DNA of 63,280 nucleotides from Thermoproteota archaeon (GTDB lineage: Archaea; Korarchaeota; Korarchaeia; Korarchaeales; Korarchaeaceae): assembly GCA_015522685.1 (NCBI GenBank), contig WALU01000018.1, forward strand, positions 1 through 63,280, in the 5' to 3' direction. Every line of letters begins with the position of its first letter. The stretch's first letter is position 1. Of the stretch, positions 2,293 through 10,869 are shown in pieces. The notes under the pieces are model-generated. The model was not told the DNA's origin. It searched no databases and was given only the letters and a program-made list of their open reading frames with translations. The position numbers and the translations under genes were made by a program.

Positions 2293-3279
2293 ATGAAGAT
2301 AACCATTAAGTGGATTACAATGGCGATACTGTTAATCTTGGCTCTAATTCTGCCACTATTCGCAAATGAGTTTATAATCTCCGTATTCGTCCAAGCGTAC
2401 TTCTGGGCATTTCTGGCCCTAAGTTGGGATGTGATAGGAGGATATGGTGGTCAATTCTCACTTGGGCATGCTGCATTTGTTGGAATAGGAGCTTATACAT
2501 CCACTATACTGCTTGAGAGCTATGGTATATCGCCTTGGATGGGAATGTGGGCTGCTGGCATATTAGCAGGCATTGCTGGTGCATTTATTGGAATAACATC
2601 TCTTAGACTAAGAGGACCTTTCTTTGCCTTAGCAACAATAGCATTCGCTGAACTAGTTAGGCTATTACTTCTATACTTCAAAAATGTAACTAGAGGACCC
2701 TTAGGAATGCTCATAACGCAGACGGGCCCTCAGAATATGATATTCGAGCAGCAATCCTACTACTATTACCTAATGCTTGCATCGATGATCACTGGTGTAA
2801 TTTTCCTGAAATGGTTTGAGAACTCTAAATTCGGCATAGGGCTTGTTGCATTGAGAGAAGATGAAGAAGCGGCTGAAAGTGTTGGTATAAACGTCTATAA
2901 GACAAAGATAATAGGAGCTACAATAAGTGCTTTTCTTACAGGAATAGGGGGGACTATATATGCTCAATGGCTCCACTATGTGAGACCCGACGTCCTAGTT
3001 AAGTTGGATTATTCTACTCAAATAGCTGCAATAGACATAGTTGGAGGAGCTAGTAGCCCTTACGGAGGTGTTATAGGATCCTTAATTCTAGTACCCTTAT
3101 CTCTTTACCTCAACTCAATATTCGGAGGAATGATAGCAGGCTTGAGCCTCATACTTTACGGCGTGGTTCTCCTATTGGTGGTTGTACTACTACCTAGTGG
3201 TATTTATGAATTTCTAAGGAGGAGAATCTCTGATATCATGGCTAAGAAGATGGAGAAAGGAGGTGGCAAAACTGCCTAG
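2293..3279 (+). CDS. livM: Branched-chain amino acid ABC permease
   Basis: GYGGQFSLGHAAFVGIGAY, LRLRGPFFALAT, ALREDEEAAESVG. Confidence 0.92.
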   Translation: MKITIKWITMAILLILALILPLFANEFIISVFVQAYFWAFLALSWDVIGGYGGQFSLGHAAFVGIGAYTSTILLESYGISPWMGMWAAGILAGIAGAFIGITSLRLRGPFFALATIAFAELVRLLLLYFKNVTRGPLGMLITQTGPQNMIFEQQSYYYYLMLASMITGVIFLKWFENSKFGIGLVALREDEEAAESVGINVYKTKIIGATISAFLTGIGGTIYAQWLHYVRPDVLVKLDYSTQIAAIDIVGGASSPYGGVIGSLILVPLSLYLNSIFGGMIAGLSLILYGVVLLLVVVLLPSGIYEFLRRRISDIMAKKMEKGGGKTA

Positions 3280-4009
3280 CATCCTTAAAATAAAGGGGAT
3301 AACAAAGAAGTTCGGTGGGCTAGTAGCCCTTAATAAAGTGAGCTTGGAGGTAAGAAGGCACGAGCTCCTTGGTTTAATAGGTCCTAATGGCTCTGGCAAA
3401 ACCACGCTCTTTAATGTGATAACTGGGTATTATAAGCCAGAAGAAGGGAGGATATATTATAAAGAGCAAGATATAACTGGTCTTAGACCTCATAAAATAG
3501 TTAAAATGGGCGTAGCTAGGACATTCCAGATTCCAAAGCCCTTTGGAAGACTAACCGTATTGGAAAATGTTATGTCTGCTGCTATGTATGGCAGAGAAGC
3601 AACAGCTTCTAAAGGTAAAGCTAAATCCCTCGCAATGGAGTGGCTGAAATATGTTGGGCTTGATAAGAAAGCTGATATAGAGGCAAAGACCTTAAATATA
3701 GTTGAGAGAAAGCTAATGGAGCTAGCTAGAGCCCTCTCTACAGGACCGGATCTGCTACTGTTAGATGAGCTTGTTGCAGGGCTAAACACATCGGAGATGA
3801 TGAATGTTGTAGAGCTTGTTAGAAGGCTCGTGGATGAAAAGGGACTAACGATAATAATGGTAGAGCATGTTATGAAAGCAGTAATGAGTATATCAGATAG
3901 AGTATTTGTTCTCCATAGAGGAGAAAAGTTGGCAGAAGGGAAACCAGAAGAGATAGCTAAGGACCCTAAGGTCATAGAAGCATATTTAGGGGAACCTATC
4001 AAGGTGTAA
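3263..4009 (+). CDS. livG: Branched-chain amino acid ABC ATPase
   Basis: GPNGSGKT, ARTFQ, LLLLDE, C-terminal VIEAYLG. Confidence 0.93.
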   Translation: MAKLPSILKIKGITKKFGGLVALNKVSLEVRRHELLGLIGPNGSGKTTLFNVITGYYKPEEGRIYYKEQDITGLRPHKIVKMGVARTFQIPKPFGRLTVLENVMSAAMYGREATASKGKAKSLAMEWLKYVGLDKKADIEAKTLNIVERKLMELARALSTGPDLLLLDELVAGLNTSEMMNVVELVRRLVDEKGLTIIMVEHVMKAVMSISDRVFVLHRGEKLAEGKPEEIAKDPKVIEAYLGEPIKV

Positions 4010-4728
4010 TGGTGATACATATGCTGCTTGAACTAAAAGATATAAATGCAGGTTACGGTGATCTACATATCCTATGGGACGTAAGTTTAGGCATAGAAAG
4101 GGGTGAGATTGTCAGTCTCCTAGGTAGCAATGGAGCTGGCAAAACAACCACTCTAAGAGCAATATCAGGACTTATCAGGCCATTCAGCGGCAGTATTTAC
4201 TTTAATAGGGAGGATATAACGGGATATCCAATCCATAGAAGAGTTGAAATGGGGCTATCTCTAGTTCCAGAGGGAAGGCAGCTCTTTCCAGAGATGAATA
4301 TAGTAGAGAATCTTGAAATGGGTGCCTATACTAAGAGAGCAGAGGAAAATTTCCAGGATGCATTAGAATGGGTCTTTAATCTCTTTCCTAAACTTAAAGA
4401 GAGGAAGAAGCAGTTAGCTGGTACTATGAGCGGTGGAGAGCAGCAGATGCTTGCCATAGCCAGAGGACTGATGAATAGACCTGAGATCTTGATGATGGAT
4501 GAGCCTTCCATGGGACTGGCGCCTAAACTCGTTCTTGAAATATTCAACACGATAATGAAACTAAGGGAAGAGGGAGTAACTATCTTTCTAGTAGAACAGA
4601 ATGCTAAAGCAGCTCTTGATATTTCTGATAGGGCCTATATAATAGAAACAGGTAGAATTACTTTACATGGACCTGCAAAGGAGCTTCTTAGCATGGATGA
4701 AGTTAGAAAAGCATATTTGGGTATCTAA
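4009..4728 (+). CDS. livF: Branched-chain amino acid ABC ATPase
   Basis: GSNGAGKT, VPEGRQLF, MSGGEQQMLA, DEPSMGLAP. Confidence 0.93.
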   Translation: MVIHMLLELKDINAGYGDLHILWDVSLGIERGEIVSLLGSNGAGKTTTLRAISGLIRPFSGSIYFNREDITGYPIHRRVEMGLSLVPEGRQLFPEMNIVENLEMGAYTKRAEENFQDALEWVFNLFPKLKERKKQLAGTMSGGEQQMLAIARGLMNRPEILMMDEPSMGLAPKLVLEIFNTIMKLREEGVTIFLVEQNAKAALDISDRAYIIETGRITLHGPAKELLSMDEVRKAYLGI

Positions 4729-4763: not shown

Positions 4764-5765
4764 TTAGATTAGCCTAAATAATGCATTTATGACATCATCA
4801 GTTGTGGAAGAACCCCCTAAATCTGGAGTTAATGCGATTCTCCTCTCTATAAGATCATCGACTGCCCTTCTCACTAACATACCTTTCTCTCTTAGGTCTG
4901 AATTCTTAGTTCCCAGCCACGTTAACATCAGGGAAGATGCAATAACAGCCCCTAAGGGATTAGCTATTCCTCTACCAGCTATGTCTTCAGCAGTGCCATG
5001 AATGGGCTCAAAGGCAGCAAAACTATCTCCTACTTGCGCTGATCCGCAAAGTCCTAAGCTACCTATGACCCCGGCTGCTACATCAGAGAGTATGTCTCCA
5101 TATAGATTTGGGGTAACCATTATGTCAAAGGCATTATCAACTTTAACTAGCTTGTAAGAAGCAGCATCAACTATAGCATCATCCGCAGCTATGCTAGGAT
5201 GTTTTTTGGCTACTTCATAGAAGGTTTCAAGAAAGAGCCCATCAGAGACCTTGAGTATGTTTCTCTTATGTATAGCCGTTACTCTCTCCCTTTTTTCTTC
5301 CTCAGCGAGCCCAAATGCATACTCCGATATTTTCTCTGATTTTCTCTTTGTTATAATTCTGCTGGCTATAGCCTTCTCTCCATCTGCCTCCTCAATACCG
5401 GAATAAAGGCCTTCAGTATTCTCCCTTACAATCACCGTGCTTAACTTTCTAATGGAAATTCCAGAGTAGCTCCTGAAAGGCCTTACATTGGCATACAGAT
5501 TGAACTCCCTTCTAATCCTCAGATTGATGCTCAGGTACGTTCTACCTCTAACAGGAGTGGCTATTGGCCCTTTAAGGAGGACATCGCTCTCTTTAATCTT
5601 CTGTATCCCCTTCTCCTCCATGGGAAGACCTGTTTCGTAGAAGTACTTCTTTCCTGCTTTTATGAAGACGAATTCAGCTTCAATCAGGCTTTCCAAAATA
5701 GAGATAACTCCCCTTATTATCTCAGGCCCTACACCATCTCCCTCTATGACAGCTATCTTGATCAT
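4764..5765 (-). CDS. Isocitrate/isopropylmalate dehydrogenase family protein, most likely isocitrate dehydrogenase
   Basis: GDGVGPE, RENTEGLY, PNLYGDILSD, FEPIHGTA. KGPIATP...SINLRIRREFNLYANVRP carries the IDH-type S-x-N substrate motif. Confidence 0.85.
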   Translation of the reverse strand: MIKIAVIEGDGVGPEIIRGVISILESLIEAEFVFIKAGKKYFYETGLPMEEKGIQKIKESDVLLKGPIATPVRGRTYLSINLRIRREFNLYANVRPFRSYSGISIRKLSTVIVRENTEGLYSGIEEADGEKAIASRIITKRKSEKISEYAFGLAEEEKRERVTAIHKRNILKVSDGLFLETFYEVAKKHPSIAADDAIVDAASYKLVKVDNAFDIMVTPNLYGDILSDVAAGVIGSLGLCGSAQVGDSFAAFEPIHGTAEDIAGRGIANPLGAVIASSLMLTWLGTKNSDLREKGMLVRRAVDDLIERRIALTPDLGGSSTTDDVINALFRLI

Positions 5766-5777
5766 GATGAATAACCT

Positions 5778-6272
5778 CTATTCCCATGGGAACTTTCCCC
5801 ATCTCTTATAGTAACTCTCAATTCCTCCTTCTCGGATTATTGCCATTATCAGGTCTGGATATGGAGGAAAGTTTACCTCTATCTCTCTAGTCATATTCCT
5901 AACGATTCCATTCTCAAGGTCTATTTCCACATTATCCTTATCCTCCGCTTCTATATCAGCTTCCACAGCGGGTAATCCTACGTTGATAGAGTTCCTATAG
6001 AAAATTCTAGCGAAGGACTTGGCCACTACAGCGCCTACTCCTACAAGTTTGAGGAGCCTAGCAGCATGTTCTCTGCTAGAACCATAACCGAAGTTCTTTC
6101 CAGCTATTATTACGTCACCTTTCCTTACTCTCTCACTGAATTCTGGAATCACATCGTGAAAGACGTACTTCTTCATCTCCTCTAGGGTCCTCACCTTGTA
6201 TTTAAGCCTCCCAGGTATTATATGGTCAGTTGTTATATCATCCCCTAGCTTCCAAGCCCTTCCCTTTATCAT
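5778..6272 (-). CDS. Aconitase-family hydratase small subunit (LeuD/HacB type)
   Basis: DITTDHIIPG, GKNFGYGSSREHA, AKSFARIFYRNSINVG. Confidence 0.92.
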   Translation of the reverse strand: MIKGRAWKLGDDITTDHIIPGRLKYKVRTLEEMKKYVFHDVIPEFSERVRKGDVIIAGKNFGYGSSREHAARLLKLVGVGAVVAKSFARIFYRNSINVGLPAVEADIEAEDKDNVEIDLENGIVRNMTREIEVNFPPYPDLIMAIIREGGIESYYKRWGKFPWE

Positions 6273-7525
6273 AATAAAAACCTCCCAGGATCCGTTATCT
6301 GGCCCCTAACTGCAGTTGCTGCGGCAGTTAATGGGGAAGCAAGATATACTTTGCTGGTTGGGTCTCCCATTCTCCCCACAAAGTTCCTAGTAGAGGTGGA
6401 AAGAGCGATCTCATTTGGTCCAAGAACCCCCATATGAGCTCCAATGCAAGGGCCGCATGTCGGCGGTCCTATCACACATCCAGCCTCTGCAAGATCCTTA
6501 GCTAATCCCCTTTCTAGCATCTTCATATAAACCTCCCTAGATGCTGGTGCTGCTATGCACCTCACACCTTGGCTCACCTTATTTCCTCTCAATATACGAA
6601 GAGCCTGCATGAAATCTTCCAGCCTGCCTCCTGAGCATGAACCTATGAAGACCTCATTTACCTTTGCCCCTTCAAGGTCCTCTACAGGCTTCACTCTATC
6701 AACATTGCTAGGTAGAGATAGGTTCGGTTTTATATCCTCTGCCTTAAACTCGTGAACTATCTGGTAATCTGCATTTTCATCAGGCCTCAACTCCTTCAAT
6801 GGCTTTGATGTCCTCCTTTTGAGCCAATCCAGGGTCTTCTTATCAGCAGGTACTAGACCTACCTTAGCTCCCATTTCAACGCTCATATTAGATAGAACCA
6901 TCCTCGAATCTATGCTCATTCCCTCGACAGTTGATCCTAGGAACTCCATAGCTATGTAGTTAGCTCCATCACTCTTCATATAACCTATTATCTCCAGTAT
7001 AACATCCTTGGCCATGACGCAGTCCCTAAGCCGACCATCGACCTTAATCGCTATACTTTCTGGAATTCTAAGCCAGGTCTTACCTTTAGCCATAGCTATA
7101 GCAGCATCTGTGCTTCCTACTCCAGTAGCAAATGATCCGAATGCCCCAAGAGTGACAGTATGGCTATCAGCTCCTAATATAACCATGCCTGGTTTTACAA
7201 GGCCCTTCTCAGGCAAGACCTGATGGCTTATGCCGTTACCTACATCAAATATCTCTATTCCATTAGAAGAAGCGAACTCCCTCATCTGGATATGAAGAGC
7301 TGCAGCCTCCACATGAGGTGCTGGAGCTGCATGATCTATTATAAACTTAATCCTGCTTGGATTCCTTACTCTATCTATGCCTAACTCCTTTAGGACGTCT
7401 ATTGCGAGAGGAGCTGTACCATCATGAGCATAAACTAGATCGACATCCATTGCTATGTACTCGCCTGGATGTACCTCTCTACCAACCTTTTTGGAGAGTA
7501 TCTTCTCTGTTAGGGTCATTCCCAT
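6269..7525 (-). CDS. Aconitase-family hydratase large subunit (LeuC/HacA type)
   Basis: MTLTEKIL, IIDH, GISHQV, GADSHT, FIGSC..GR, CGPCIG (three 4Fe-4S Cys), STSTRNFVGRMG, YLASP. Confidence 0.93.
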   Translation of the reverse strand: MGMTLTEKILSKKVGREVHPGEYIAMDVDLVYAHDGTAPLAIDVLKELGIDRVRNPSRIKFIIDHAAPAPHVEAAALHIQMREFASSNGIEIFDVGNGISHQVLPEKGLVKPGMVILGADSHTVTLGAFGSFATGVGSTDAAIAMAKGKTWLRIPESIAIKVDGRLRDCVMAKDVILEIIGYMKSDGANYIAMEFLGSTVEGMSIDSRMVLSNMSVEMGAKVGLVPADKKTLDWLKRRTSKPLKELRPDENADYQIVHEFKAEDIKPNLSLPSNVDRVKPVEDLEGAKVNEVFIGSCSGGRLEDFMQALRILRGNKVSQGVRCIAAPASREVYMKMLERGLAKDLAEAGCVIGPPTCGPCIGAHMGVLGPNEIALSTSTRNFVGRMGDPTSKVYLASPLTAAATAVRGQITDPGRFLL

Positions 7526-8814
7526 ACCTTAACACCCTCCATGAGCTCTGGAACGTACTTCTTGAGTATCAGAAATATCTCTTCATCGCTCAGTGGCTCA
7601 ACTCTCCCATCCTTAAAGCGATCAAGTACCTCTTTATAAGCAGCATCCAGTCTAGGATCCCTCTTCAGGCTGGACCAGTTCCTTATCCCAGCTCTCTTAA
7701 CTAACCAATATATGAGGCCGGCTCTTCCTGAATAGGGCGTAATCTCAACGGTGTATGGAATGCCTAGGACCACCTCTGGGTTAAATGGCAAGTATATAGC
7801 TGGATTCTTTAAGAGACCATCTATATGTATTCCCGCCTTAGTTCTGAAGGCGTTCTCTCCCAAGAGAGGATAGAACTCAGGTATGCGGAATCCCATCTTA
7901 GTGAAAAGAGCCTTAGCTTCCCTTAGAGCTCCAAGGTTTAATGGAGAGTTTTCCATTAATTGGGCATGAAATATTGCCATGGCCTCCAACGGACAATTTC
8001 CAGCTCTCTCTCCTATACCTAGAAGTGTACAATTGGATAGGGATGCCCCATATACCCAAGCAGCTAGATGATTGGCTACTACTAGATGAAAGTCATTATG
8101 CCCATGAAATTCCAATTGCTTACTTTTAAGACCAAGATCGTCTAGAAGAAGCCTTATCAACCTTGGTATGCTCCTCGGAAGCGGTGCCTCTATAAAAGGA
8201 AGGCCCATCCCCAAGGTATCTGAGAGCTTGAACTCTATCTCCATGCTATACTTTCTAGAAAGCTTGAGCACTCTATTGAGGAATGGAAGTAGAAAGCCGT
8301 AAACATCACTCCTAGTTACATCCTCCATTGCAATCTTGAGCCTAAGGCCCATCTTCAATCCCTCCTCTATGACTTTGAGGTACTTCTCCTGTGCAGTCTC
8401 CCTGTCCATTCCGAGCTTATGATATATATGAAAGTCTGATATGGAAGTTAGAACTACCGCGGTATCCAATTTAGCTTCCTTTACAAGCTTCAAATCACTT
8501 ACCTTAGCCCTGACCCACCCTATCGGCCTAGGATAAGAATCTCTATCTCTTATCTCGGAGATCATCCTCCTATCTTTTTGAGTATATGGAAAGAACTCTA
8601 TATCCCTTACGACTCCACTGTTATTGTCGAGCTTTACAAGTATGTCATATATCTCGAGGGCTTCTTTCACCCTGAATGGCCTGCTTCCCTGCTGGCCATC
8701 TCTCAAGGTGGTATCTGTTAATATAAGCTCGTGATCAGGAGGCTTCCTTCCGAATCTGGGCACGCCTATCTTAGGAAAGAACCAATTCTCACTGTCCTCC
8801 ATTAGTATCGCCAT
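7516..8814 (-). CDS. Re-citrate synthase-like DRE-TIM metallolyase
   Basis: DTTLRDGQQ, LDNNSG, EFFPY, SDFHIYHKL, EDVTRSD, DTLGMG..PRS, HGHNDF, GIGERAGNCPLE, AGIHIDG and YSGRAG match the clostridial Re-citrate synthase pattern as I recall it. No LeuA C-terminal regulatory domain. Confidence 0.8.
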   Translation of the reverse strand: MAILMEDSENWFFPKIGVPRFGRKPPDHELILTDTTLRDGQQGSRPFRVKEALEIYDILVKLDNNSGVVRDIEFFPYTQKDRRMISEIRDRDSYPRPIGWVRAKVSDLKLVKEAKLDTAVVLTSISDFHIYHKLGMDRETAQEKYLKVIEEGLKMGLRLKIAMEDVTRSDVYGFLLPFLNRVLKLSRKYSMEIEFKLSDTLGMGLPFIEAPLPRSIPRLIRLLLDDLGLKSKQLEFHGHNDFHLVVANHLAAWVYGASLSNCTLLGIGERAGNCPLEAMAIFHAQLMENSPLNLGALREAKALFTKMGFRIPEFYPLLGENAFRTKAGIHIDGLLKNPAIYLPFNPEVVLGIPYTVEITPYSGRAGLIYWLVKRAGIRNWSSLKRDPRLDAAYKEVLDRFKDGRVEPLSDEEIFLILKKYVPELMEGVKVWE

Positions 8815-9573
8815 TTTCGCACTTAATTTATCGGTGAACTATTTATATATTCCTTTTATCGTCATATAATATACGAAAATCGAACCTTAAAATATTAGTC
8901 CTATATCTTAAACATATCCGACAAGCTGCAAGAAAAGGGACAATGAATCTAAAAGATTTTGCTCAAGATAGACAGCTATCTCGGTCTAAAAATAGGTGAG
9001 TTACTAGTTCCTCCTTCGGACTGAGTTATAGATTCTACTGCCTGTTTATCTCCTGAAGAGCGATAATATTTCAACTATTAGGATGACAATGAATAACCGA
9101 ATATTTATGCAATTCTGCTAACGTCATAGCCTGACTTGGGAATGTTTTAGTTATAGTAACTGTTTGAAGGGCACTAATAGCCTTGTTTACCGTAATCATC
9201 TTAGGATTTTCTGCAGAAAGTACCTTATTTGAGGGCAATGTTAAGGATAAGCTAGGTGAAGAGTACCTTAAGTGCTATATCAACGTAGACGCTCTGGAAT
9301 GTTGAAGGATCCCTCTTCCTCTAATGGTCATGGTATAGACATCACATGACGCGTTAATGGATCCTTCGCCTCAATCTTAGCATATATGAGTAACGTTCAG
9401 GTCAAAATCAGCAGCACTTACTGGCATCAGGATGATAGAATAAGTAAAAATAATAGTAAAGGAGGGAATAAAAATCTCGGGTGGATCACTTTTCTTTTTT
9501 AGAGTTAGAAGGATAGCTCATAAAGTTTTGAGGACTCACTACATTCCATATTATAACATTTGATGAATTAGCC

Positions 9574-10869
9574 TTACACATAGAGATATGCTTTATACTC
9601 AGCCTTGCTGGGCCAAGAACCTACATTGGAGGCCTCCCTCCTTTTAAGGCTTAAATAAGATTCTAGAACAGTCTGATCAAATAGATCCCCCAAGTAGGAA
9701 CTATCCGACTCTAGGGCATCTAATGCCTCGTGAAGGCTTCTTGGAAGCCTCTTTACTCCAAGATTCGCTGTATAAATATTTCCATTGAATGGATCTCCTG
9801 GATTTATCTTTTTCTTTATTCCGTCTAGACCTGCAGAGAAAGCCGCAGCGAACGCGAGGTATGGATTACAACTCGAATCGGGAACCCTAAATTCTATTCT
9901 CTTAGAGCTCTTAGCACCCTTCCTATATACAGGAACCCTTACTGCAGCGCTCCTATTTGCCCTCCCCCATACAGCATATATTGGAGCTTCATATCCCGGT
10001 ACTAATCTCTTGTAACTGTTCACTGTAGGAGCAACTATTGCTGAGAGAGAGCCTATGTGATCCAAGATTCCACCTATAAAGTACCTGCCTTCCTGACTTA
10101 ACTCGGCGTAGCTATCACTATCATCGTAGAACAGATTCTCCTCAGAGTTCCAAAGGCTCATGTGAATGTGCATTCCGTTTCCATTATCTCCAGGTACTGG
10201 TTTAGGCATGAAAGTAGCTATGAGATCCTGCTCACTAGCTACAATCTTAACAGTCTTCTTAAGCCTCATAACATTATCAGCTTCCTTCAATATGGATAGT
10301 GCTCTTATCGATACCTCAGACTGCCCAACACCTACCTCGTGATGAGTAACCTCTGGTTCCAATCCCAGCTCTGTGAGGACATCTAAGATTCTCAGCTTCA
10401 ACTCATATAGAGGATCGGAAGGGGGAGAAAAGTGATAATTTATCTTTGGCATGCTTCCAAGCGTTGAAACAGGCTTCAATTCCTTGGTGAGTATGGTGAA
10501 TTCCATCTCCGGACCAACAAGGCCTCTCAAACCTTTCTTATTCAACACCTCCTCCATCTTAGATGCTATGTACCTTGAATCCTTCAATGATCTCTTACCA
10601 CCGAACGGCTCCCATATATCGCATAGGAGCATAAGAGTATCATCTTTGATTATTGCAGTGCTTGGATCGGGAACAAGTAGAGCATCACTCCACTGTATCT
10701 CAGAGAGTCCAACGCTGCTTGCATCAAAAGCACCACTTCTTCTCGATTTGAACGCTTCGAATGAGAGGATCTCGCTCCTCAAAGTACCGAAAAGGTCGAT
10801 ATACTCTAGTTCTACGAATCTAACTCCTTTAGACTCAGCTTTCCTTAAGACATCATCTATCGATGGCAT
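9574..10869 (-). CDS. glnA: Glutamine synthetase type I
   Basis: FDASS, GPEMEF, HHEV..GQSE, TFMPKP..GDNGNGMHIH, NSYKRLVPGYEAP, NRSAAVRVP, IEFRVPD. Confidence 0.95.
   Translation of the reverse strand: MPSIDDVLRKAESKGVRFVELEYIDLFGTLRSEILSFEAFKSRRSGAFDASSVGLSEIQWSDALLVPDPSTAIIKDDTLMLLCDIWEPFGGKRSLKDSRYIASKMEEVLNKKGLRGLVGPEMEFTILTKELKPVSTLGSMPKINYHFSPPSDPLYELKLRILDVLTELGLEPEVTHHEVGVGQSEVSIRALSILKEADNVMRLKKTVKIVASEQDLIATFMPKPVPGDNGNGMHIHMSLWNSEENLFYDDSDSYAELSQEGRYFIGGILDHIGSLSAIVAPTVNSYKRLVPGYEAPIYAVWGRANRSAAVRVPVYRKGAKSSKRIEFRVPDSSCNPYLAFAAAFSAGLDGIKKKINPGDPFNGNIYTANLGVKRLPRSLHEALDALESDSSYLGDLFDQTVLESYLSLKRREASNVGSWPSKAEYKAYLYV

Follow-up and report, generated by a model that had tools for sequence, protein, structure and literature searches.

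The stretch of DNA studied here (hereafter the window) consists of 63,280 nucleotides of contig WALU01000018.1 from a Thermoproteota archaeon of the Korarchaeaceae, whose genome, designated G000, comprises 1.48 Mb in 63 contigs and is 92% complete. We report on an operon of four genes in this window which is probably, with a rough probability of 0.6, the front end of lysine biosynthesis through alpha-aminoadipate (AAA), made up of a homocitrate synthase, a homoaconitase and a homoisocitrate dehydrogenase. The first gene encodes a short synthase of the DRE-TIM (HMGL-like) type, P0001, of 432 amino acids (aa; 7516..8814), the proposed homocitrate synthase. It is followed by the genes of the LeuC-like protein P0002 (418 aa; 6269..7525) and the LeuD-like protein P0003 (164 aa; 5778..6272), the large and small subunits of a [4Fe-4S] hydro-lyase proposed to be homoaconitase, and by that of a beta-decarboxylating dehydrogenase of the Iso_dh family (333 aa; 4764..5765), which is the proposed homoisocitrate dehydrogenase and possibly also active on isocitrate. 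An earlier interpretation of the locus from its letters alone (the sequence-only reading) had described four tightly linked genes, and this was borne out: the open reading frames (ORFs) fill positions 4764-8814 exactly, on the minus strand throughout, with an overlap of 10 nt between the synthase and LeuC-like genes, an overlap of 4 nt between the LeuC-like and LeuD-like genes and a gap of 12 nt before the dehydrogenase gene. A TATA-like box, ATATATAAAT on the coding strand (8841..8850, minus strand), was read from the sequence 27-36 nt 5' of the synthase ATG and is preceded by a purine-rich AAAGGA, which suggests that the operon has its own, putative, promoter.

In the proposed route, the synthase would condense acetyl-CoA and 2-oxoglutarate to homocitrate, the LeuC/LeuD-type iron-sulfur hydro-lyase would convert homocitrate through cis-homoaconitate to homoisocitrate, and the dehydrogenase would oxidatively decarboxylate homoisocitrate to 2-oxoadipate. 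This compound would be transaminated, and the aminoadipate would enter the LysW carrier-protein pathway (LysX, LysZ, LysY, LysJ and LysK, encoded on contig C49 of G000). Substrates and products are predicted here from gene order in relatives, residue patterns, the gene content of the genomes and a single instance of co-decay. The same three types of activity in the same order, with a LeuCD-type hydro-lyase and an Iso_dh dehydrogenase, make up the LysS-LysT/LysU-homoisocitrate dehydrogenase (HICDH) set of Thermus, Pyrococcus/Thermococcus and Sulfolobus, and blocks orthologous to the window operon are, as in that front end, joined to LysW/X/Y/Z/J/K. The layout of LysS-LysTU-HICDH with LysW is described in two papers (PMC1963480, PMC10433800), and a third names AAA as the pathway by which T. 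tenax, T. neutrophilus, P. aerophilum and I. hospitalis make lysine (PMC3189178). The AAA front end is in itself already known; what would be new is that its synthase is here an archaeal offshoot of the Re-citrate-synthase family.

The sequence-only reading had taken the operon for a probable Re-citrate route, in which oxaloacetate and acetyl-CoA would give citrate, a LeuCD-type enzyme would act as aconitase and an isocitrate dehydrogenase (IDH) would deliver 2-oxoglutarate for glutamate and glutamine. The synthase motifs that it cited are all present in P0001 (KLDNNSG, EFFPYTQKDR, SDFHIYHKL, EDVTRSD and LPRS). In Pfam, P0001 has an HMGL-like domain (132 bits, residues 30-302) and HCS_D2, and the LeuA regulatory domain (LeuA_dimer) is absent, as had been claimed. 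The NCBIfam models gave 169 for nifV (TIGR02660; cut-off 462.9), 128.1 for LysS (TIGR02146; cut-off 413.55) and lower scores for LeuA. An exhaustive HMMER scan of 1.84 billion representatives returned 4291 matches at E<=1e-3, of which 91 passed E<=1e-30, with a step in score between a close family, at ~190 bits and up, and the ordinary NifV, LysS or LeuA proteins beneath. The 22 upper representatives scanned matched no NCBIfam family at 1e-90, and the lower ones were mostly of NifV, LysS or LeuA type. In a tree of 70 rows, the family (57 rows) was parted from 10 LeuA/LysS/NifV/CimA rows by a branch of length 0.65 with a Shimodaira-Hasegawa-like approximate likelihood-ratio test (SH-aLRT) support of 100. 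Within it, P0001 belongs to a distinct archaeal clade (support 98 in this tree and 100/99 in a careful tree of 35 rows). At family level, the phylogeny thus upholds the sequence-only reading in setting P0001 apart from LeuA, CimA, LysS and NifV and inside the Re-citrate-synthase family, the grouping with LeuA or homocitrate synthase that would have contradicted it being absent; it departs from that reading in that the archaeal proteins form a sub-clade of their own.

Among the named members of this family are proteins from Oceanidesulfovibrio, Holophaga, Desulfovibrio, Mailhella, Bilophila, uncultured Syntrophus sp., Syntrophorhabdus, Clostridium sp. and Eubacteriaceae, and one Clostridia member carries the JGI name 'citrate (Re)-synthase'. 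It must be noted that the bacterial anchors were uncultured Syntrophus sp., metagenome-assembled genomes (MAGs) of Clostridium sp. and this one JGI annotation, and that they stand in for the characterised C. kluyveri and S. aciditrophicus sequences. PMC12016533 gives the Syntrophus and C. kluyveri enzymes as the Re-citrate synthases known with this type of sequence, and the corresponding KEGG orthology entry is K05942 according to PMC11964587. With the C. kluyveri/S. aciditrophicus-type enzyme (EC 2.3.3.3, K05942), P0001 shares the family, its signatures and the lack of a regulatory domain. Its identity to the bacterial members is 38-43%. Signatures common to P0001 and the bacterial members and missing from the outgroups are RDGQQ (RDGEQ in the outgroups), GWIRA and E[FW]HGHND, to which a 3-residue insertion with LDNNSG/SG.IR..EFFxY..DR and a 7-residue LPRS insertion can be added as further family-only features; SD.HI..KL and ED.TR.D are not diagnostic of the family, as looser forms of both are found in LeuA, HCS and NifV. 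A search of PDB sequences with the synthase returned only distant homocitrate synthase, isopropylmalate synthase and citramalate synthase matches, and a search of the ESM Atlas only generic bacterial HMGL/isopropylmalate synthase clusters. Most Thermodesulfobacteriota members (L038-L056 and others) are ~600 aa long and continue at the C-terminus for ~170 aa that the archaeal and Clostridia proteins lack. The archaeal members (Korarchaeota, Desulfurococcales, Thermofilaceae and Thermoproteales) are publicly annotated as '2-isopropylmalate synthase', so that the warning that such genes are easily mis-annotated was well founded. Ignicoccus, the one archaeon known to show Re-type labelling, was not in the best 120 matches to the Stetteria protein.

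The archaeal and bacterial clades differ in the predicted substrate pocket, for which we compared two positions that precede the catalytic-type Glu in the E-D-x-T-R motif, one by four residues and the other by two. In P0001 these are K160 and A162, relative to Glu164. The bacterial clade has Arg at the first position and His at the second, the latter without exception (24/24 rows, 120/120 Clostridia proteins). Among 161 archaeal homologues of at least 380 aa, the motif was matched in 159, all with Ser, Ala or Thr two before Glu and none with His (0/159), and Arg or Lys stands four before Glu in 152 of the 161. Arg four before and Thr two before Glu were found in the Lys-cluster synthases of two Nitrososphaerota genomes (G048, G051) and in the LysS representative P0256, which is above the TIGR02146 cut-off, while Leu-cluster synthases have Glu or Leu four before and Ser two before. 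P0001 therefore has the homocitrate-synthase pattern, a basic residue four before and a small or hydroxyl residue two before Glu, like those synthases whose homocitrate role is assigned from context or from a model. It differs from the bacterial Re-citrate-synthase clade in having Ala for His, Ser-Asp-Thr for Cys-Asp-Thr and EFHGH for EWHGH. Judged by these residues, the archaeal clade looks like a user of dicarboxylates with a homocitrate-synthase-like pocket, and the bacterial clade like one with an additional His. The loss of a His that is invariant in the bacterial clade speaks against a Re-citrate function of the archaeal proteins.

Gene neighbourhoods also differ between the two clades. 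They were taken from the best 80 of at least 600 genome-contig stretches and the best 80 of at least 596 metagenome stretches, and the LysW-cluster proteins of G000 itself served as probes for Lys genes. Linkage of the synthase to a LysW cluster was seen at 5 of the 16 archaeal loci from beyond the genus Korarchaeum and at 0 of the 4 from within it, and none of the 144 bacterial loci has two or more Lys genes beside the synthase. At 32 of these 144 loci (two scans), the bacterial synthase has instead an aconitase-family or Iso_dh neighbour. One locus, L129, was counted as archaeal here and is bacterial in the 35-row tree; it has no Lys genes. The closest synthase outside Korarchaeum among the loci listed, from a Desulfurococcales MAG (L027, 57% identical), lies in the order synthase-LeuC-LeuD-dehydrogenase-LysY-LysZ-LysW-LysX. 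In another Desulfurococcales locus (L030) and in a different Korarchaeota genus (L109, genome G037), LysX, LysW, LysJ and LysK are divergent from LysY, LysZ and the four operon genes (LysK<LysJ<LysX<LysW< >LysY>LysZ>synthase>LeuC>LeuD>dehydrogenase). In Vulcanisaeta (L057) the order is LysZ-LysW-LysX-LysK-synthase, with LysJ, ArgX and LysY alongside, and a metagenome contig (L127) has a left half like that of L057 with the synthase last. In the 35-row tree, a group of 24 rows contains P0001 (support 99/98); the Lys-cluster member L057 branches first in it, and Lys-cluster members are also found in two further sub-clades. Four Nitrososphaerota genes without Lys-cluster neighbours diverge before this group. 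Two genomes of this phylum, G048 and G051, have a regular-type synthase instead in that place of their Lys cluster (363 and 369 with the LysS model, below 413.55).

The bacterial loci have other neighbours. Genuine NADP-IDH genes adjoin the synthase in L038 (644 > 567), L070 (509 > 490) and L072 (492 > 490), the last also with a PRK11413 aconitase-family hydratase, and L058 has a PRK07229 aconitate hydratase (913 > 612) and a NAD-IDH-like gene near the synthase. In loci of the Syntrophorhabdus type (L070:2672-7414, L076, L077 and L082), the order is synthase-LeuC-LeuD-NADP-IDH, the IDH of L070 being above the PRK07006 cut-off. By their neighbouring genes, the bacterial members appear to behave as citrate synthases, and in the Syntrophorhabdus-type operons the LeuCD-type enzyme is, by its position, what fills the aconitase slot. 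A LeuCD-type enzyme in an aconitase slot, as in the sequence-only reading, was therefore seen in bacteria; at the archaeal loci, Lys genes stand in place of icd and aconitase genes. The ten-gene Lys cluster of G037 (L109:381-9635, contig C3) groups with Desulfurococcales L030 (100/99) and not with Korarchaeum, which suggests that the complete cluster was acquired by transfer.

With respect to the gene inventory of G000, its LysW cluster is of the Sulfolobus type (C49; ArgX-like, LysY, LysZ, LysW, LysX, LysJ and LysK) and holds two ligases, a LysX (331 > 275.6) and an ArgX-like paralogue (258). A lysA gene was found (375 > 298), together with a dapA-like gene below its cut-off (188 < 206), and dapB was not found in G000. 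Lysine synthesis via LysX needs a homocitrate synthase and this points therefore to P0001, the only synthase of G000 with the right pocket: the two other DRE-TIM synthases, namely the LeuA encoded on C29 within a canonical leuA-leuC-leuD-leuB operon and, on C26, another synthase with a regulatory domain, both have Glu four before and Ser two before the catalytic Glu, and P0001 alone has a basic residue. The three synthases would thus map neatly to the synthesis of isopropylmalate, citramalate and homocitrate. A Re-citrate role of P0001 would leave G000 with LysX and with neither a homocitrate-type synthase pocket nor dapB. The same inventory bears on the view of the operon as a leucine, isoleucine or coenzyme-B-type elongation set with an isopropylmalate, citramalate or AksA-type synthase, which would agree with the LeuA, LEU1_arch, AksF and HacB models among the weak NCBIfam matches listed for the operon and with the public '2-isopropylmalate synthase' name. 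We regard it as very improbable, because G000 already has the complete set on C29 and the C26 synthase, and P0001 is set apart by a long and fully supported branch, carries a basic residue at the position where the Leu-cluster enzymes have Glu or Leu, and is devoid of the LeuA regulatory domain.

Among 43 Korarchaeota genomes, which formed the phylum-level set, the synthase is present in G000, in 18 of 20 further Korarchaeum genomes and in G037, and in 0 of the remaining 22; the two genus genomes without it are ~70% complete. The four operon genes are syntenic in G014, G019, G025 and G037. The co-occurrence with a LysX above its cut-off (19/20 genomes with the synthase versus 5/23 others) was not used as a test, as it is confounded by phylogeny. 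The sequence-only reading had asked whether the genome lacks Si-type citrate synthase and AcnA. As to the first, a citrate synthase of the Si type was found in G000 (TIGR01800, 498 > 421); as to the second, no AcnA was found in it. Among the 20 other genus genomes, 9 carry a Si-type citrate synthase, and these are the closer relatives of G000; 7 of the 9 also have a long AcnA-type aconitase and all 9 a third Iso_dh, G000 having two Iso_dh genes only. For example, G025, with a synthase 85% identical to P0001, has besides the operon a Si-type citrate synthase, AcnA (1380 > 945) and NADP-IDH (584 > 567). A Re-type citrate route would be redundant in these close relatives. Outside the phylum-level set, the Vulcanisaeta genome G053 has a Si-type citrate synthase and a putative long Iso_dh (a 418-aa frame).

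A third LeuC/LeuD pair of G000 lies on contig C35 (17747-19547; L015:4748-6548), between hisS and a TrpB-like gene, and has the LeuD loop YLRS; no complete pair of this kind was found elsewhere in the genus. The C35 LeuC groups (SH-aLRT 99) with fused PRK07229 aconitases and with bacterial LeuC proteins encoded between a Re-citrate-synthase-type synthase and NADP-IDH, and the 'LRS' loop type is also that of bacterial pairs adjoining NADP-IDH. The C35 pair may act as a two-subunit aconitase in AcnA's stead; alternatively, the AcnA and NADP-IDH genes of G000 may fall in assembly gaps.

A case of co-decay was found in the genome G017, which is 99% complete and is the sole genus genome of at least 90% completeness with no LysX at 1e-40; it also has no LysY/ArgC, the only such case among the five genomes checked. 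In its operon, LeuC has a frame change at residue ~297 and a deletion of ~400 nt takes away LeuC residues 361-414 and LeuD residues 1-78 (L208:2435-3762, contig C21), while the synthase and dehydrogenase genes are whole. In G030 and G033, LysX is kept and the four operon genes are intact, with proteins 92-95% identical to those of G014. The isomerase has thus decayed together with the loss of the LysW back end, which therefore fits a lysine role and is unexpected for a general route to 2-oxoglutarate. G017 had been considered, as a genome with the operon and no LysX, for a counter-example to the lysine assignment, and was rejected as such since the operon is broken there.

Of the remaining enzymes of the operon, P0002 is above the cut-offs of NF001614 (566 > 385), TIGR02086 (563 > 410) and TIGR01343 of the hacA family (549 > 386), with a Pfam Aconitase match of 328 bits, and P0003 is above that of TIGR02087 (182 > 109) and below that of HacB2_Meth (186 < 230). 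Both subunits are accordingly placed by LeuC/LeuD-type subfamily models, and no equivalog model (LEU2, HacA_Meth, aconitate hydratase) reached its cut-off. The substrate loop of P0003 is GRLKYKVRT, against GRYLKHGAD in the leucine-operon paralogue. As a discriminator between aconitase and homoaconitase the LeuD loop was rejected, because its archaeal operon type varies (KYKVRT, KFKTQN, KYSSGS) and its 'LRS' type is common to the C35 pair and to bacterial pairs beside NADP-IDH.

The dehydrogenase has a Pfam Iso_dh match of 276 bits and is below all NCBIfam cut-offs, both of the LEU3_arch (341 < 410), AksF (320 < 500) and AksF2 (336 < 540) models and of the curated IDH models PRK08997 (309 < 510), PRK09222 (307 < 509) and TIGR00175 (285 < 432), as well as of iso_homocit_dh (NF040855; 248 < 680). 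Its proposed assignment as homoisocitrate dehydrogenase comes from its context only. The IDH-type motif KGP..TP...S-x-N that the sequence-only reading had noticed is indeed present, with S79 and N81. The window loop, KGPxxTP..SxN, contrasts with GAATSP..GAIR in the Thermus HICDH and with KGPVGETAADVVV in the isopropylmalate dehydrogenase of Sulfolobus; the LeuB paralogue of G000 has no S-x-N loop, and the isopropylmalate dehydrogenases of Sulfolobus differ as well. The Lys-cluster dehydrogenases of L027, L030 and G037 also carry the S-x-N loop, and therefore this loop cannot tell isocitrate from homoisocitrate use in the lineage. The enzyme may also accept isocitrate. In this regard, it resembles the Thermococcales dehydrogenases of the NF040855/5hn3 type (5hn3, T. 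kodakarensis), presumably bifunctional, in being an Iso_dh with an isocitrate-compatible loop encoded within or near an archaeal lysine cluster; it differs from them in its score (248, with a NF040855 cut-off of 680) and in having only 207 bits to 5hn3, and belongs to another subfamily.

Several observations weigh against the lysine assignment. P0001 reaches no NCBIfam cut-off and so falls short of curated LysS or NifV membership; it lies outside the LysS/NifV clades of the known AAA front end, its nearest functionally anchored relatives being the bacterial Re-citrate-synthase-type proteins, with which it has RDGQQ, EFFxY and the LPRS insert in common and which it matches at 43 of 81 signature columns. 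The two pocket positions would correspond to Arg163 and Ser165 of the S. pombe homocitrate synthase, which hold the distal carboxylate of 2-oxoglutarate, a correspondence checked through gene context alone; the role presumed for both positions follows the structures of homocitrate synthase from S. pombe and Thermus. In the dehydrogenase, the loop KGPIATP...S79-I-N81...R85 is of the isocitrate type (S-x-N...R), its three residues being those which we take to be equivalent to S113, N115 and R119 of the E. coli enzyme. The loop is present in 21 of 21 synthase-linked dehydrogenases compared, genuine NADP-IDHs included, and the best solved relative is an IDH (NAD-IDH 6lky, 258 bits), ahead of the Thermus homoisocitrate dehydrogenase 3asj (240 bits). 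Within Korarchaeum, the operon does not adjoin the LysW cluster, which in G000 lies on another contig, and a LysW cluster, since it also makes ornithine from glutamate, is not uniquely a sign of lysine. G048 (Nitrososphaeria), although its Lys cluster already holds a regular synthase, also encodes a synthase of the P0001 type with LeuCD at another locus (L033). G000, at 92% completeness, is without the AcnA and NADP-IDH of its sisters, and five genomes of 96-99% completeness (G014, G015, G017, G031 and G033) have no Si-type citrate synthase, AcnA-type aconitase or third Iso_dh. This Korarchaeum sub-clade without Si-type citrate synthase would be the main remaining evidence for a Re-citrate function, and Si-type citrate synthase is missing from 8 of 11 archaeal genomes with a P0001-type synthase. 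Finally, G017 is a single MAG, in which an assembly error is possible.

Much of this evidence favours the Re-citrate route: the grouping and signatures of P0001, the S-x-N loop and the five genomes just named, together with the bacterial synthases beside genuine NADP-IDHs and aconitases and the LeuCD of the Syntrophorhabdus-type loci. Glutamate dehydrogenase and GlnA are present and could use its 2-oxoglutarate. In addition, P. delaneyi has a family member (P0422) and is reported, like most Desulfurococcales, to have no citrate synthase; the P0001-type gene is not considered in the available part of that Pyrodictium reconstruction (PMC5556600). Nevertheless, we consider this route unlikely for the window operon, in view of the archaeal orthologues embedded in Lys clusters and not among genes of the tricarboxylic acid (TCA) cycle, the missing His, the Si-type citrate synthase of G000 and its sisters, and the decay of LeuC/LeuD just where LysX and LysY are absent.

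The glnA gene, which the sequence-only reading had placed directly upstream and which would fit a supply of 2-oxoglutarate to glutamine synthesis, does not change this assessment. It is located at 9574-10869, upstream and on the same strand (GlnA model, 435 > 429). The spacer between glnA and the synthase (window 8815-9573, 760 bp) has no ORF of at least 60 aa. It matches both ends of a gene of ~540-560 aa at the same place in G025 and, more weakly, in G019; in G014 a gene of this size occupies the position, but the spacer match is undetectable. The spacer is, to judge from these matches, the relic of a ~1.1 kb deletion in that gene, which still parts glnA from the operon in the sister genomes G025, G019 and G014; glnA is directly upstream in G000 alone because the intervening gene was deleted. 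No glnA was found near the synthase in the 80 first related loci from other organisms, and the linkage, confined to the genus, is not kept outside it.

A further possibility is that one promiscuous set of enzymes carries out both elongations, from oxaloacetate to 2-oxoglutarate and from this to 2-oxoadipate, and in this way supplies the LysW pathway on both its sides (glutamate/ornithine and aminoadipate/lysine). The Lys-cluster dehydrogenases with the S-x-N loop would fit it, as would the absence of Si-type citrate synthase from 8 of the 11 archaeal genomes mentioned above. So would G037, which has one DRE-TIM synthase, one Iso_dh and a Lys cluster and no Si-type citrate synthase. The Desulfurococcales MAG G043 has two archaeal-type synthases, one in the Lys cluster (L027:5959-7320, contig C18) and one standing alone (L119:7472-8827, contig C3), with a single Iso_dh, no regular LeuA-type synthase and no Si-type citrate synthase. 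Oxaloacetate is a side substrate of the Thermus homocitrate synthase, and isocitrate and homoisocitrate are reportedly both used by the Pyrococcus horikoshii and T. kodakarensis (TK0280) enzymes, which are bifunctional dehydrogenases. The LysW back end is bifunctional in Sulfolobus and Thermococcus, according to PMC10433800. We hold such a double function to be doubtful here, given that half of the genus species have a Si-type citrate synthase besides the operon and would not need it, that the two synthases of G043 suggest a division of labour (the paralogues may share out citrate and homocitrate synthesis) and that the decay in G017 suggests an operon useless once the LysW genes are lost.

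Beyond the homocitrate synthase proposed for the window, it is conceivable, if rather improbable, that P0001 belongs to a large archaeal branch of Re-citrate synthases that either turned into homocitrate synthases or form, with their partner enzymes, a dual C4/C5 elongating trio feeding both LysW arms. His as opposed to Ser, Thr or Ala two before Glu would then set the chain length. If true, this would explain, with few genes, Re-type citrate synthesis together with AAA lysine synthesis in Thermoproteota that have no Si-type citrate synthase, such as Ignicoccus. Assigning the archaeal branch rightly changes how the lysine, glutamate and TCA pathways of many uncultured hyperthermophiles are reconstructed. 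The family is also a natural experiment on how DRE-TIM enzymes switch between C4 and C5 dicarboxylic 2-oxoacids, as its two sister clades, with different gene contexts, differ in one candidate pocket residue that is open to mutagenesis. The archaeal branch was not described in the literature that we searched for Re-citrate synthase in archaea, Korarchaeota, Crenarchaeota, Thermoproteota and Ignicoccus, supplementary tables being outside the scope of that search. A term search of the main text of PMC12787533 returned no citrate synthase, TCA, aconitase, isocitrate, lysine or isopropylmalate. The archaeal gene may already be listed as a homocitrate synthase in supplements such as Table S3 of PMC3189178.

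Downstream of the operon, two adjacent plus-strand genes (window 3263-4009 and 4009-4728) are paralogues of each other, with ~33% identity in their tblastn cross-hits.

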